Shown: positions 58,627 through 63,491 of the stretch, one piece after another
Position numbering within the stretch: the first letter of the stretch is position 1
Layout of the letters: the number at the start of each line of letters is the position of its first letter
DNA from: Alphaproteobacteria bacterium
GTDB lineage: Bacteria > Pseudomonadota > Alphaproteobacteria > RF32 > CAG-239
Length of the DNA: 64,000 nucleotides
NCBI GenBank assembly: GCA_045597005.1
Contig: JAZODJ010000022.1
Coordinates: 51,379-115,378, forward strand
Direction: 5' to 3'
Program-made: the position numbers and the translations under genes
The notes under the pieces: generated by a model
What the model saw: only the letters and a program-made list of their open reading frames with translations
What the model was told of the DNA's origin: nothing
Databases searched by the model: none

Positions 58627-58685
58627 TTTGCTCCGGTTTTCTTAAAAAACTATAATATCATTCAGATGAGCCTTTCCCTTTCTGT

Positions 58686-59050
58686 CATCCAAAGGAGCCT
58701 TTTTTCTTTTGTCATTCAGAGGAGCCACCCCTCCCTCTGTCATTCAGAGGAGCCGACAGGCGACGAAGAATCCATAAAATCAGAGACTCTTCGCGTTACT
58801 CAGAGTGACATAAAATGGATTGCTTCAGCGCAAGCGCTTCGCAATGACTTTTCATTCTCTGTCACTGCGAGGAGTGACAACGACGAAGCAGTCCATAAAA
58901 AGGAGTGGATTCCTTCGTCGCTATCGCGCCTCGGAATGACATAGGGGAAAAAATCTTCCTCGCTGCAACATAAAAAAATAAAAGCTGTCTCGAAACAATA
59001 TAAAATTACCATCATGCCTCCGAACGAAGTGAGGTCAGGGCATCTTCAAT
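58686..59050. repeat. Cluster of REP/MITE-like imperfect palindromic units
   Basis: At least seven ~30-35 nt units of the type gtcaYtc.gaggagY....cgacgaag.a.tcc occur in both orientations. Examples are gtcattcagaggagccgacaggcgacgaagaatcc, its inverted partners ...cttcgcgttactcagagtgac and ggattgcttcagcgcaagcgcttcgcaatgac, and gtcactgcgaggagtgacaacgacgaagcagtcc / ggattccttcgtcgctatcgcgcctcggaatgac. Track ORFs 58666..58944(+) and 58800..59015(-) are translations of these repeats. Confidence 0.8.
58859..58986 (+). repeat. Flanking direct repeat, copy A (3' side of the flagellin gene)
   Basis: 128 nt (tctgtcactgcgaggagtgacaacgacgaagcagtcc...cctcgctgcaacataaaaaaataaaagc). By eye it aligns with 61328-61453 with 4-5 substitutions and one 2-nt indel. 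Confidence 0.85.
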
Positions 59051-59062
59051 ATTTCGCTATTC

Positions 59063-61175
59063 TTAAAACAAACTCAAGATACTTTGTGCGGATTGTGATG
59101 CCAGCGAGAGTGAGTTTGTTGCCAACTGTTGGCGCGTCTGCAACGCCAAATAATTTGCCGATTCTTCATTCATATCTGCCAACACCAGATTATCAGCACC
59201 GGTTTCCAAGACATCAATAAGCGCATCGGTAAAATTTTGCCTTGTTTGAATCAGTTGATATTGATTGCCGAATGCCTCGGAATATTCGCGCAATTTGTTT
59301 ATTGCCAACACCAACTCGTCCAAAGCTTGTTCAACATCAGCAACACTTTTCCAATCGACAGTTTTTAGCCCTATTGCATCATACTTGGCATCAACTCCTG
59401 ACACCTCGATATTATGAACTCGCGATTCATTTAATGTTACGCTCAATTTACCATTATTCAACAAATTGATTCCCTGATACGACGTATCTTTTATCATATC
59501 ATCATAATTGCTCAATATCTTCAAATATTGCTCGCCGAAATTATCCGCCAAACTATCGTCGCTGATAATTTCGGAGCCGGCTCCGCCGGCATAAGATACC
59601 GCACTTGCCACTACAATACTTCCCATAGACTTCATTGCTGTTAATAATGCTGAGGCATTATAATTCGTTATTGCCGTAATATCTTCTGTATATTTCGCAC
59701 TTGTTGCCCAATATGTATTGGTGGTCGAACCGCCGTACGGATTGTCGGCATTAAAATTGCCCGTTGAACTTGTACTGCTGAATGTTAAATCCTTGAGGTT
59801 AACTATCTTTACTGAACCGTCGTTATTTACTGCACATACTATACCGACTGCCGTTTTGCTTCCGTCATAATCATCAGCCGATCCCCAAGTTTTATCACTG
59901 TACATAACATCGCCAATTTGTGGGGCAGCTCCGCTGCCACCGCCACCTACGGTGCCGGAAAGGGTTGAAGGGTTAAAGCAATTTTCTAAAAGCTGGAAAC
60001 AACGGACGAGGGTTAGTGTTGTTCTTATTGCCGTTGTAACGGTAACCATTACTTGTACTCAATTTCCAAGAAAAGTTATTAGATTACTCAGAAGAGGACC
60101 AATAATAACCGCTCATTTCCGATGCAACGCTTGAATCTTTAGCTGCCAAGGTGCCTAACGCATCGTTGATGACCTTCATATTACTTGTATCATAACTTGC
60201 AGCACCACTTGTTCCACTTCCTGAGGTCATTGCACTGGTATCTGTGCCATACATATCCATCAACTCACCTATTGATGGCAAATACCACGTCCCTTGATCA
60301 AACTCTCCACTCGTGCTGCCTACATAAAATTGATTAGCTGCTGTTGCTGCCAGACTATGTTCTTCTAGCTGATTTACTATTGCTTTGGTGTTTGCTTCTC
60401 CTGCATATAGATTAACTGCATCATCATTTCCATTCTGGAACATTTGAGATCCTGTTCCACTTACCTTTATATTGGATGGATTATCTATTATTACACTTCC
60501 TCCATTTAATACTTGTATTCCTTTTACATTGGTGCCACTGGCTTCTATTATCAAATTCGATATTTCTGCAATTGAATCTGCCCCATCTACTACTATCGCA
60601 GAACCTCCACTTGCGGAATTATAAACTAGCTTATGTCCATTACCTTCTATTACAACGTCACTTGTTCCTATATTTAAACTCTCGCTTAGCGTTACATCTC
60701 CGGATAATACTAGCTTCGTCGCTCCGCCTGCTATAAGCGCCTCTATTTCCGAAGCTCCTGATCCTGCCGGTACTGCTGTATATCCTTCCGCTATAAAGTC
60801 TTCTATCGGGCGTGATACTACCCCACTACTTCCTTCTCCTCCTGAAACTCCGCTCTGCGATGAAGCTCCACTCTGTGACAATGCTTGCTCCACAACTGAC
60901 TTAGCTTGCTCTAAAAACGTCAAGCCGATCTCTATTCCCTCGGACGCCGCACTTAAGGTTTGTATCCCCTGTCCCATACTGTCTAATAATGAGGCCAAAT
61001 CACTCGCCCTGTTCGTTAACGCTCGTGCCTGATAATAACTACTCGCATTGTCCAATGCCGAATTTACATCCTTACCAGTAGACAAACGCTCCTGTGTCTT
61101 ATCCATTTGTGTCGAAATCGTTTTTAACGACTGCAAATTACTGCGCATACTCGAGGTTAAGGTGATCCGGTTCAT
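59063..61175 (-). pseudogene. Flagellin carrying an internal DGR variable region, currently interrupted by an in-frame TAA and a +1 frameshift
   Basis: ORF 60084..61175 starts with a flagellin N-terminal D0/D1 domain (MNRITLTSSMRSNLQSLKTISTQMDKTQERLSTGKDVNSALDNASSYYQA...). ORF 59063..60049 ends with a flagellin C-terminal domain (LDELVLAINKLREYSEAFGNQYQLIQTRQNFTDALIDVLETGADNLVLADMNEESANYLALQTRQQLATNSLSLASQSAQSILSLF). The junction is the VR. Total span is 2113 nt; removing the single extra VR nucleotide gives 2112 nt, or 704 codons in one frame. The central part has beta-helix-like repeats and a DUF1566/CLec-like module (WYLPSIGEL ... GYYWSSSE ... VRC). Confidence 0.85.
59991..60102 (-). other. 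DGR variable repeat (VR)
   Basis: The reverse complement (112 nt) is ttggtcctcttctgagtaatctaataacTTttcttggaaattgaGtacaagtaatggtTaccgtTacaacGGcaataagaacaacaCtaaccCTcgtccgttgtttccagct. Capitals mark the only differences from the TR. Confidence 0.9.
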
Positions 61176-61282
61176 TAATAAACTTTCCTAATTTAAAGAC
61201 TATCATATATATTAAAATATGCATATATTATGTTTAATAAATATTTAATTTCTACACTTTTTTTTAAGACAGAAAAAATAAT

Positions 61283-61453
61283 CCCTCCCGTCATCCTGAA
61301 CGCAGTGAAGGATCCCCCTTTTTTTCTTCTGTCACTTCGAGGAGTGACAACGACGAAGCAGTCTAAAAAGGAGTGGATTCCTTCGTCGCTATCGCGCCTC
61401 GGAATGACAGAGGGGGAAAAATCTGCCTCGCTGCAACATAAAAAAATAAAAGC
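61283..61453. repeat. REP/MITE-like units plus flanking direct repeat copy B (61328-61453), 5' side of the flagellin gene
   Basis: gtcatcctgaacgcagtgaaggatcc is followed by a 126-nt copy of the 58859-58986 repeat. Track ORFs 61193..61495(-) and 61230..61526(+) are translations of these repeats. Confidence 0.85.
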
Positions 61454-61709
61454 GAACTCGCAACAACAAAAAATTGCATTACTTAAAATAAACACCTATA
61501 AATTTGCGGATAAATTAAAAAAATAAATTTGTTTCTACAAAAATTATTCCATAATACAAAAGGCAATTTGAGCGGAGATTAAAAAGAAGTATTCGCCGGA
61601 ATTTTAATAATTATGGTTATTAAAAGTGAGCATCTTTTTATAAAAAAAGGGTCATTCACAGCAATCAAATGCTGTTAAGAACAATAGCAATGACAAAAAA
61701 CTGTTTGGC

Positions 61710-61820
61710 TTGGTCCTCTTCTGAGTAATCTAATAACAATTCTTGGAAATTGAATACAAGTAATGGTAACCGTAACAACAACAATAAGAACAACAATAAC
61801 CACGTCCGTTGTTTCCAGCT
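61710..61820 (+). other. DGR template repeat (TR)
   Basis: 111 nt: ttggtcctcttctgagtaatctaataacaattcttggaaattgaatacaagtaatggtaaccgtaacaacaacaataagaacaacaataaccacgtccgttgtttccagct. In the target's frame it is rich in AAC/AAT codons (S N N N S W K L N T S N G N R N N N N K N N N N H V R C). It lies 47 nt upstream of the RT start. Confidence 0.9.
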
Positions 61821-61867
61821 CTTTTTATAAATAGACATCAGATACTAACAAACGTTGTAAGAAACAA

Positions 61868-63166
61868 ATGACCTTATTTGACCCCGAAAATACTGCATTA
61901 ACTTGTCAAATACCTCTTGAAGAGGTTTTTAATGCTTATTACGAATGTCGACGCAACAAACGTCGCACAGTCAACGCTTTGGCATTTGAGCTTAATTTTG
62001 AACACGAACTGATTCGTTTGTGGCAAGAAATTAATACCAACAAATACAAAATCGGCCGTTCAATTGCCTTTGTTATAAAACATCCGGTACAACGTGAAGT
62101 ATTTGCAGCCAATTTTCGCGACCGAATAGTACACCATTTGGTTATATCTAAAATCAATCACCTATTTGAAGAAGAATTTATCCCAACAAGCTATAGTTGC
62201 CGCGAAGGGAAAGGTGTTTTATATGGGGGCAAAAATATCAAAGCACAAATGAAAGATTGTTCCGAAAACTACACCAAAGATTGCTACATCTTAAAACTGG
62301 ACATACGTTCATTCTTTATGAGTATCAACAAAAATATTCTTTATCAACGCTTACATGCATTTGTATCCGAAAAATATCATCAACCGGATAAACCCATCCT
62401 ATTACGACTTATAAAACAAATAATATTTTATGCTCCTGAAGATAATTGCACCATCAAAGGAAAATGGGCTGATTGGAAAGGACTTCCCTGTTATAAAAGT
62501 TTGTTTTGGTCTGAAGGACATTGCGGACTTCCTATCGGTAACCTAACGTCTCAAATATTTGCTAACTTTTATCTCAATAGCCTTGATAAATACATAACAG
62601 AAACATTAGGAATAAAACACTACGGACGATATGTCGATGATTTTATACTGATGCACCAAAACAAACAAACCTTAATAGAAGCCCACCAAAAAATCAAAAA
62701 TTTTATCTCTTCAGACCTCAAACTCTATCTTCATCCGCAAAAAGTATATTTGCAACATTATAGCAAAGGTGTAAAATTTATTGGTAGCGTTATCAAACCT
62801 CATTGCATTTATATTGGCAAACGTTCAAAAAACAACCTATACAACAAAATTTATTCCTTATTACCCCAAATGGCTAACAACGTACAAAATACTCTGGATT
62901 TATTACAACATTTCACCTCTAGCATCAATTCATATATGGGATTTATGCGACACTACAATACCTATAATCTACGATGCAAAATAACAAATCTTTTAGAAAC
63001 AACTTTTTTGGGCAACATTTTACTGCAAACCCCTAATGCCTTAAAAATTGCAATTCATAAAAATTTTACCGCAAAAGAATTAAAAAAACGCCAATTGCGA
63101 CGACAAAAACAATACCGAAAAAAATTAAAAAAACATCTACAGGAGAATATTTATGGTCTTGTATAA
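61868..63166 (+). CDS. DGR-type reverse transcriptase
   Basis: 432 aa. REVFAANFRDRIVHHLV, then LPIGNLTSQIFANFYLN (the [ILV]GxxxSQ motif that distinguishes DGR RTs from group II and retron RTs), and the catalytic GRYVDDFIL. There is no endonuclease or maturase extension. TR lies immediately upstream. Confidence 0.9.
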   Translation: MTLFDPENTALTCQIPLEEVFNAYYECRRNKRRTVNALAFELNFEHELIRLWQEINTNKYKIGRSIAFVIKHPVQREVFAANFRDRIVHHLVISKINHLFEEEFIPTSYSCREGKGVLYGGKNIKAQMKDCSENYTKDCYILKLDIRSFFMSINKNILYQRLHAFVSEKYHQPDKPILLRLIKQIIFYAPEDNCTIKGKWADWKGLPCYKSLFWSEGHCGLPIGNLTSQIFANFYLNSLDKYITETLGIKHYGRYVDDFILMHQNKQTLIEAHQKIKNFISSDLKLYLHPQKVYLQHYSKGVKFIGSVIKPHCIYIGKRSKNNLYNKIYSLLPQMANNVQNTLDLLQHFTSSINSYMGFMRHYNTYNLRCKITNLLETTFLGNILLQTPNALKIAIHKNFTAKELKKRQLRRQKQYRKKLKKHLQENIYGLV

Positions 63167-63491
63167 CCAACTTCCTATTTATCGAGATGCATATCAACTT
63201 TTGTTGGAAATATACCAAATAACCAACAAATTTCCTCGTGACTTCAAATATACTCTCGGACAAGATATGAAAAAAAGCTCTCTTGAACTGTTCAAAGAAT
63301 TATACAATGCAAATGTTTCTATCGAAAATCGTAAAGAATGTATCAATAGATTTTTAGCATCATTCGAACTCTTAAAAATAGAAATGCGATTATGCACAGA
63401 TTTACAAATATTATCCGTCAACAAACTGGCTCAACTTAGCTTAATTATGGATTGTATCGGCAAACAAGCTTCCGGTTGGCGTAAAAAATAA
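63153..63491 (+). CDS. avd: Avd-like accessory variability determinant (four-helix-bundle protein)
   Basis: 112 aa. LPIYRDAYQLLLEIYQITNKFPRDFKYTLGQDM ... IGKQASGWRKK follows the Avd / 23S-rRNA-intervening-sequence-protein family pattern (FP+..KY.LG ... GKQ..GW.K). aggag SD. Overlaps the RT stop by 14 nt. Confidence 0.8.
   Translation: MVLYNQLPIYRDAYQLLLEIYQITNKFPRDFKYTLGQDMKKSSLELFKELYNANVSIENRKECINRFLASFELLKIEMRLCTDLQILSVNKLAQLSLIMDCIGKQASGWRKK

Follow-up and report, generated by a model that had tools for sequence, protein, structure and literature searches.

The retroelement and its repeat pair

The stretch analysed here (the window: 64,000 nucleotides (nt) of contig JAZODJ010000022.1, assembly GCA_045597005.1, Alphaproteobacteria bacterium) shows a diversity-generating retroelement (DGR) opposite a flagellin gene, which in turn adjoins flgB, flgC and fliE. 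The plus strand contains a template repeat (TR) and the genes encoding a reverse transcriptase (RT) and the accessory protein Avd, and the variable region (VR) lies inside the flagellin gene on the minus strand. The locus probably belongs to a clade of flagellin-diversifying DGRs in gut Alphaproteobacteria, with an OFF allele of the flagellin as its present product in this genome. The genes and repeats, including the open reading frames (ORFs) of the target, are as follows, with sizes of proteins in amino acids (aa).

59063-61175, minus strand: target gene, an outer-domain flagellin, disrupted and split into two ORFs (Pfam, conceptual repair)
60084-61175, minus strand: N-terminal ORF of the target, 363 aa, Flagellin_N with 42.2 bits (cut-off 26.6), ending in ...GYYWSSSE-TAA
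59063-60049, minus strand: C-terminal ORF of the target, 328 aa, Flagellin_C with 27.3 bits (cut-off 23), reading ...LVRCFQLLENCF in the +1 frame
59991-60102, minus strand: VR, 112 nt (gapped alignment to the TR, ungapped repeat finder)
60084-60086, minus strand: in-frame TAA within the VR, the same as TR codon 61726-61728 (codon-by-codon view, ORF list)
60010-60012, minus strand: run of CCC (GGG on the plus strand) where the TR has CC at 61800-61801, shifting the frame just before VRCFQ
61710-61820, plus strand: TR, 111 nt, 41 A (alignment to the VR, codon view)
61868-63166, plus strand: DGR reverse transcriptase, 432 aa, intact, with IGNLTSQ and YVDD (RVT_1, E 6e-20)
63153-63491, plus strand: Avd accessory protein, 112 aa, overlapping the RT stop by 14 nt (Pfam bAvd, 66.3 bits, cut-off 40)

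The gapped local alignment of the TR with the reverse complement of the VR shows an inverted repeat with nine substitutions, at TR positions 61738, 61739, 61754, 61768, 61774, 61780, 61781, 61796 and 61802. All nine are at TR adenines (41 A in the 107-nt TR core, hypergeometric P ~1e-4) and at codon positions 1-2 of AAT, AAC or CAC codons in the target frame, and the alignment contains no substitution at a non-A template position. The alignment also requires a gap, the VR being longer by 1 base: it shows AACCCTCG against AACCACG in the TR, i.e. an A-to-T change and an extra C, which adjoins the mutated A at TR 61802. The ungapped repeat finder divides the pair into two arms offset by 1 base, one of 92 nt at 91% and the other of 24 nt at 92%. 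The last 18 nt of the homology (CGTCCGTTGTTTCCAGCT) are identical in both repeats, and the sequences diverge beyond them. Only one VR was found when the window was scanned for further copies. An earlier note on this DNA, made from the letters alone, had reported the same pair, with the same differing adenines in the same codon positions, and both alignment and codon view reproduce it. Its further statement that no non-adenine position differs is true of substitutions and fails for length, so the "strictly" adenine-specific, "clean A-only" pattern cannot be kept: the CCC against CC is needed to align the repeats, and this 1-nt insertion was already implied by the note's own intervals of 111 nt for the TR and 112 nt for the VR.

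The RT shows the DGR features expected in the motif-4 signature [I/L]GxxxSQ and in the YxDD site, and the intact ORF contains both of the motifs that the earlier note had cited. When compared with PDB sequences by phmmer, its best match is 8ub7_A (E 1.8e-29), and group II and retron RTs follow at ~1e-6. In this match the segment IGSLTSQLFAN of 8ub7_A (annotated as "Reverse transcriptase", 328 aa) is aligned to IGNLTSQIFAN of the window RT; we take 8ub7_A to be the Bordetella phage DGR enzyme bRT. Near-identical RTs are found in many samples, and RTs of the same 90% identity cluster are present on a dozen more contigs. The small gene after the RT, noted before as Avd-like, encodes a protein above the Pfam cut-off for bAvd and under the cut-off of 80 bits for the NCBIfam model DivGenRetAVD (60.1 bits); its exact sequence is present on 19-22 public contigs.

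Taken by its sequence, the locus is a complete DGR, composed of TR, DGR-type RT, Avd and a cognate VR, as previously proposed, and the proposal is upheld by the repeat alignment, the 8ub7_A match and the bAvd match. The alternative, a chance or recombinational inverted repeat beside an unrelated retron-like or group II-like RT, would be in line with the NCBIfam search, in which the RT gives only sub-threshold group II, retron and Drt3a matches. It is contradicted by the A-specificity of the substitutions, by the Avd gene adjoining the RT, by the best structural relative, a DGR RT, which leads in E-value by over 20 orders of magnitude, and by the same architecture in many relatives, whose VRs vary at TR adenines; as judged from these sequences, it is already effectively refuted.

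The flagellin target

The conceptual repair of the target gene (one C removed, TAA read as Tyr) gives a single ORF of 703 aa with the domain order Flagellin_N, beta-helix, a putative Lcl_C/DUF1566 domain with the VR, and Flagellin_C. The VR encodes WSSSE*SNNFSWKLSTSNGYRYNGNKNNTN(+1)LVRCFQ, which corresponds to the C-terminal strands of the putative Lcl_C/DUF1566 lectin-like domain. This domain is internal in the repaired protein, with about 310 residues beyond it. The earlier note had described the VR and left the target unnamed; Pfam identifies it as a flagellin with a mid-protein VR, and this is the most notable feature here. NCBIfam gives flagellin subfamily models only, and no FlgL model, on the target, and a scan of the window for a second flagellin found none. 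Flagellin_N and Flagellin_C are on separate ORFs in the window, and are on one polypeptide only after repair and in more than 100 natural homologs. The repaired ORF aligns over its full length (100%) with hundreds of proteins, among them many intact flagellins of 660-790 aa; the best 120, mostly of 555-813 aa, contain Flagellin_N and Flagellin_C, often with a recorded PF07603 match. The motif WSSSE-x...SW.L...G.R....K....VRCFQLLENCF is present in 62 of these 120, all full-length flagellins, and the variation is exactly at the VR positions. A profile built from 23 homologous domains finds among PDB sequences 8q4e, the C-terminal domain of Legionella Lcl, across the VR stretch (E 6.5e-5).

An AlphaFold model was made for P0002, the closest intact homolog, which is 76% identical to the repaired target. 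The model shows long terminal helices, a beta-helix at residues ~130-250 and two inserted domains at 260-400 and 410-510, with a predicted local distance difference test (pLDDT) score >90, and its best Foldseek matches in the PDB are Caulobacter flagellin filaments. Several points weigh against reading the target as a flagellin with an inserted lectin-like domain: membership in the flagellin family rests on domain profiles; the match of the repaired ORF to Lcl_C (PF07603), over residues 280-392 and ending at the VR, has 25.8 bits, under the cut-off of 34.9; and the Lcl domain appears only weakly in the Foldseek search with the whole P0002 model (rank 29, E 0.56), where the flagellin helices dominate. 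Export by the flagellar system and assembly into the filament are candidate properties of the target, from the flgB-flgC-fliE neighbourhood and from the Caulobacter filament matches of the model.

Variable-region alleles and the OFF state

The RT and Avd of the window are 96-100% identical to their counterparts in L019 and L004. These two loci and L020, from three samples, are the closest relatives of the window and share one TR with three VRs; L010-L014, from five samples with one sister element, show an identical TR and four different VRs. In both sets the VR changes are at TR adenines. The window TR differs from that of L004, L019 and L020 at 7/107 positions, where the window VR has the window-specific bases; as the VR follows its own TR there, TR and VR have remained in step since the divergence. 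The recent activity suggested before is thus supported for the lineage, since close relatives with an identical TR carry VRs differing at TR adenines. JGI (Joint Genome Institute) metagenomes, scanned with a pattern of the window-type VR/TR in which N stood for the adenines, gave no match to any further allele.

The TR read in the target frame gives WSSSE*SNNNSWKLNTSNGNRNNNNKNNNNHVRCFQ, with an in-frame TAA at 61726-61728 that the VR retains. The earlier note had overlooked this codon, and had also missed that the target is null and in two ORFs. The codon after WSSSE in the window and its relatives is as follows.

Window: TR codon TAA, VR codon TAA; stop
L020: TR codon TAA, VR codon TAG; stop, flagellin split into 387 + 338 aa
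L004: TR codon TAA, VR codon TAC; Tyr
L019: TR codon TAA, VR codon TGG; Trp
L009 (RT 70% identical): TR codon TAA, VR codon TGG; Trp

The loci L021-L023, L027 and L028 show the same TAA-type TR as L019. A TAA universal in the clade was ruled out, other TRs having TAC, TAT, AAC or AAT at that codon. When the mutations of six TR/VR pairs were pooled (five of TAA type and L003, which has TAC at the codon), 38% of TR adenines were changed, with G as the new base in more than half of the changes. A naive model of independent changes predicts TAA, TAG or TGA at the codon in ~0.6 of homing products, a rough estimate because the alleles had already passed through selection. TRs have been described as favouring AAC/AAT codons, which avoid stops, and the bias of bRT as minimising truncation (PMC12875486). 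A TR with an in-frame TAA departs from this rule and contradicts the view of TRs as built to avoid truncation (PMC12875486); with stop and sense outcomes across samples, it is the equivalent in nature of laboratory reporters based on stop-codon repair.

The VR also differs in length from its own TR, by +1 in the window and L003, and by +3 in L013 and L019. The +1 of L003 splits the flagellin into 472 + 332 aa. Other null alleles were verified at the DNA level: L029 has a frameshift inside the VR, L030 has a frameshift at the 5' VR junction (L030 4990-5010), and L031 has an in-frame TGA in the VR. The flank of L030 (GCAGTTTTTATTTGG) matches sequence upstream of a relative's TR and not the usual ...TATTATTGG, and it looks from this match as if the integration of complementary DNA (cDNA) had run into TR-upstream sequence. 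Among the proteins resembling the C-terminal half, 19 ORFs begin inside the VR and 16 others at a conserved Met ~25 codons past it; some of these C-terminal-only ORFs may be contigs breaking at the VR and not true lesions, which tells against counting them as null alleles. Triplet slippage in AAC repeats has been noted earlier (PMC12875486), and no description of non-triplet length changes was found in that paper. The frequency of frame-breaking alleles suggests that the RT or the integration step makes non-triplet insertions and deletions, which would matter for users of DGRs as mutagenesis tools.

The target as sequenced is a null allele, since the retained TAA and the 1-nt frameshift split the gene into two ORFs. 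As far as the consensus sequence tells, this flagellin is switched off in this genome, and the TAA is copied from the template; being TR-templated, the stop did not arise by random mutation. The 112-nt VR contains both lesions, the two halves have no stop in their other 2 kb, and the termini of the target are 86-100% identical to those of intact orthologs. Since each homing overwrites the segment that holds the lesions, and the cassette still has an intact TR, RT and Avd, the OFF state is expected to be reversible.

A pair of independent lesions in the same gene could also mean decay, the flagellin being a dead pseudogene, the DGR a departing remnant, and the stop and frameshift terminal and not transient; the relatives that also have split flagellins would be expected if these paralogs were dispensable. 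Long-term decay is unlikely, since the lesions are confined to the overwritten segment, gene and cassette are otherwise intact (the Avd is identical to copies on ~20 other contigs), and the TR and VR have accumulated no non-adenine substitutions between them; the stop, moreover, comes from the TR.

A further explanation is that the extra C, and possibly the OFF state itself, arose through an error of sequencing or assembly, or because the assembler chose a minority haplotype, most cells having an intact gene. The change is CC to CCC in a homopolymer, VRs are heterogeneous in populations, and contigs of these organisms often break at the TR or the VR; together with the fact that a consensus sequence cannot give the fraction of cells with the OFF allele, this weighs against a plain OFF state. 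We nevertheless consider an artefact quite improbable. The TAA, unlike the extra C, cannot be explained as a homopolymer error, being present in TR and VR alike; a TAG allele occurs at the same codon in L020; and independent short-read assemblies (L003, L029 and L030) also show VR alleles that break the frame, +1 among them.

Proposed mechanism, known systems and relatives

Two further features may act in cis.

59924-59958, minus strand: two GC-rich inverted repeats that form hairpins, 32 nt downstream of where the TR/VR homology ends, in the coding sequence for a Gly-rich linker
61602-61834, plus strand: conserved structured RNA around the TR (RNAalifold on 7 loci)

The segment 59924-59958 has a DNA fold of -14.7 kcal/mol (z -3.4), and four lineages have a hairpin in this register, their stems differing in sequence. 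The DGR of phage BPP-1 requires a hairpin/cruciform downstream of the VR, with GC stems of 7-10 bp at 4-34 bp from the VR (PMC3240598), and by analogy 59924-59958 is a candidate target-recognition hairpin/cruciform. This assignment is weakened by the mixed z-scores across the four lineages (-3.4, -1.1, -3.1 and -1.3, two of them weak) and by the loops, GTA, GGA, GAA and TTCCG, which do not fit the 4-nt GRNA loop of phage DGRs (PMC3240598). The RNA around the TR shows two upstream hairpins, at 61602-61625 and 61651-61694, and an A/U-rich 14-bp stem (61634-61649 with 61819-61834) that brackets the TR. Compensatory changes were found in 13/51 pairs, compared with 3.3 +/- 1.4 for shuffled and 1-6 for slid controls, in an alignment of only seven sequences, and are mainly in the two upstream hairpins. 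The structured leader and the TR stem may be the functional counterpart of the Bordetella avd-TR-Sp RNA scaffold. Rfam gives nothing in the DGR region, and only tRNAs elsewhere in the window.

In the mechanism that we propose, whose homing steps are taken from established DGR biology, the chromosomal cassette (structured leader, TR, RT and Avd on the plus strand) would serve the divergent flagellin beside flgB-flgC-fliE of a low-GC (36%) gut alphaproteobacterium. The TR would be transcribed, the RT with Avd would turn the transcript into cDNA with random copying of the template adenines, and this cDNA would replace the VR, with the 3' boundary set by the conserved GTCCGTTGTTTCCAGCT segment and the GC-rich hairpin 32 nt downstream. 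Since the VR forms the last strands of a putative Lcl_C/DUF1566 domain set between the flagellin N- and C-terminal helical regions, diversification should alter a ligand-binding patch along the filament surface, and the varied patch would be displayed there. Homing would be error-prone for the reading frame, the TR containing a TAA with two mutable adenines and the products often differing from the TR in length, and the window allele would be one OFF product, with the TAA kept and one base added. This suggests that homing not only diversifies the flagellin but frequently also turns it off. The many OFF products may be selected, as phase variation, or may just be tolerated; tolerance is plausible, since there are several such flagellins per genome, e.g. 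three on one 44.6-kb contig. A dual role, in which the DGR varies the lectin-like filament patch and also works as a stochastic, reversible ON/OFF switch through a selectively maintained, mutable TR TAA and frequent length-changing homing, is put forward only tentatively. If true, it would run against the rule that TRs use AAC/AAT to avoid stops (PMC12875486), and flagellar phase and antigenic variation would gain a mechanism based on a retroelement.

The BPP-1 DGR (mtd VR, avd, TR, brt) shows several likenesses to the window: a same-clade RT, with the IGxLTSQ aligned to 8ub7_A, and an Avd partner; adenine-specific TR/VR changes concentrated in AAC/AAT codons; and a conserved GC-containing 3' end of the homology, with a candidate GC-rich hairpin further downstream (PMC3240598). 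It differs in gene order, which in the window is leader-TR-RT-Avd with the target on the opposite strand, and in the target, which in the window is a cellular flagellin and not a phage tail-fibre tip. In the window, moreover, the VR is mid-way in a 703-aa protein and not at the C-terminus, the TR holds an in-frame TAA, and the hairpin is inside coding sequence, 32 nt from the VR and with loops other than GRNA.

Cellular DGRs diversify DUF1566/Lcl_C or other C-type-lectin-fold surface proteins, such as Legionella LdtA and Treponema TvpA. In Bacteroides, DGRs diversify type V pilus adhesins (bioRxiv 10.1101/2024.11.15.621889). The window resembles these systems in the chromosomal DGR, in the lectin-like binding domain on a surface protein or appendage, and in the gut microbiome habitat, and differs from them in that the scaffold is the flagellar filament subunit itself. 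With the lectin-like domain placed between the conserved D0/D1 helices, a single filament would bear the same variant in thousands of copies. If the filament subunit does carry such a hypermutable domain, each cell lineage would present one binding variant thousands of times on an appendage used for motility, and this display would bear on adhesion, evasion of flagellotropic phages and recognition by gut antibodies. The filaments of Sinorhizobium and Achromobacter (PDB 7sn9 and 7sqd) also show conserved terminal helices and extra globular domains in the hypervariable middle; in the window the insert is instead a beta-helix with a putative Lcl_C lectin-like domain, hypermutated by a dedicated retroelement. 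The outcome would resemble that of the Hin inversion of Salmonella (PMC8987985), i.e. a stochastic, heritable and reversible switching of flagellin with an altered surface antigen, with the difference that retrohoming would write or remove a stop or frameshift, whereas Hin makes a site-specific DNA inversion of a promoter (PMC8987985). In the open literature searched, flagellin as a DGR target appears only as one word in the list of target annotations of a survey (PMC6642488), and no study of a flagellin-targeting DGR was found there beyond this passing mention. The DGR mechanism is already known; what sets this element apart is the internal VR, the stop encoded in the TR and the frame-breaking alleles that recur in its family.

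The window shares synteny with contigs of a metagenome-assembled genome (MAG) from a human-gut alphaproteobacterium, GCA_045637985.1 (SGB_6346), whose RT is 96% identical. The scan of GTDB genomes with the RT found only one species-level MAG, with four contig ends. GCA_045637985.1 (L003, L004, L005 and L006) contains two flagellin-DGR cassettes, each beside its own flagellin, and its contigs break inside the RT because the two cassettes have near-identical RTs. The TRs of the two cassettes differ at the codon after WSSSE (TAA in one and TAC in the other), and the second target is also frameshifted in the VR. The RT relatives at 65-88% identity (P0121, P0122, P0135 and P0157) are all beside a Flagellin_N / Lcl_C / Flagellin_C gene, in either orientation. 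The relatives at ~55% identity (L032 and L033) have other neighbours and show no flagellin within 6 kb, so the flagellin link is not extended beyond roughly 65-70% RT identity. In L032 and L033 the Avd lies upstream, a short ORF scoring as Lcl_C overlaps the TR, and there is no target within 6 kb; L033 neighbours DNA ligase and IF3 genes, which are common to the split-flagellin locus L030. L001, the locus of P0002, shows the 76%-identical flagellin with a VR-like motif and no TR or RT within 8 kb. Some targets may, from such arrangements, be served in trans or be no longer diversified. On the right side of the window cassette, a 126-aa ORF after the Avd gene was considered as a different right flank and rejected, being the window-truncated part of a 332-aa gene seen in L019.

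The outer segments of the target (residues 101-250 and 501-550; window ~60426-60875 and ~59526-59675) are 24% identical to the syntenic orthologs P0004 and P0005, and another flagellin, P0001, matches the target at 94-98% identity over residues 151-350. This comparison suggests that outer domains are exchanged as mosaics between flagellin paralogs. The flagellin gene is bracketed exactly by two direct copies of a 150-170 nt repeat, 92% identical, at 58840-59010 and 61328-61475, which are its only two copies in the window. These flanking repeats could be elements like miniature inverted-repeat transposable elements (MITEs) or repetitive extragenic palindromic (REP) sequences. Beside the left copy, at 58656-58754, there are four tandem units of 27-28 nt (TGTCATTCAGAGGAGCC).

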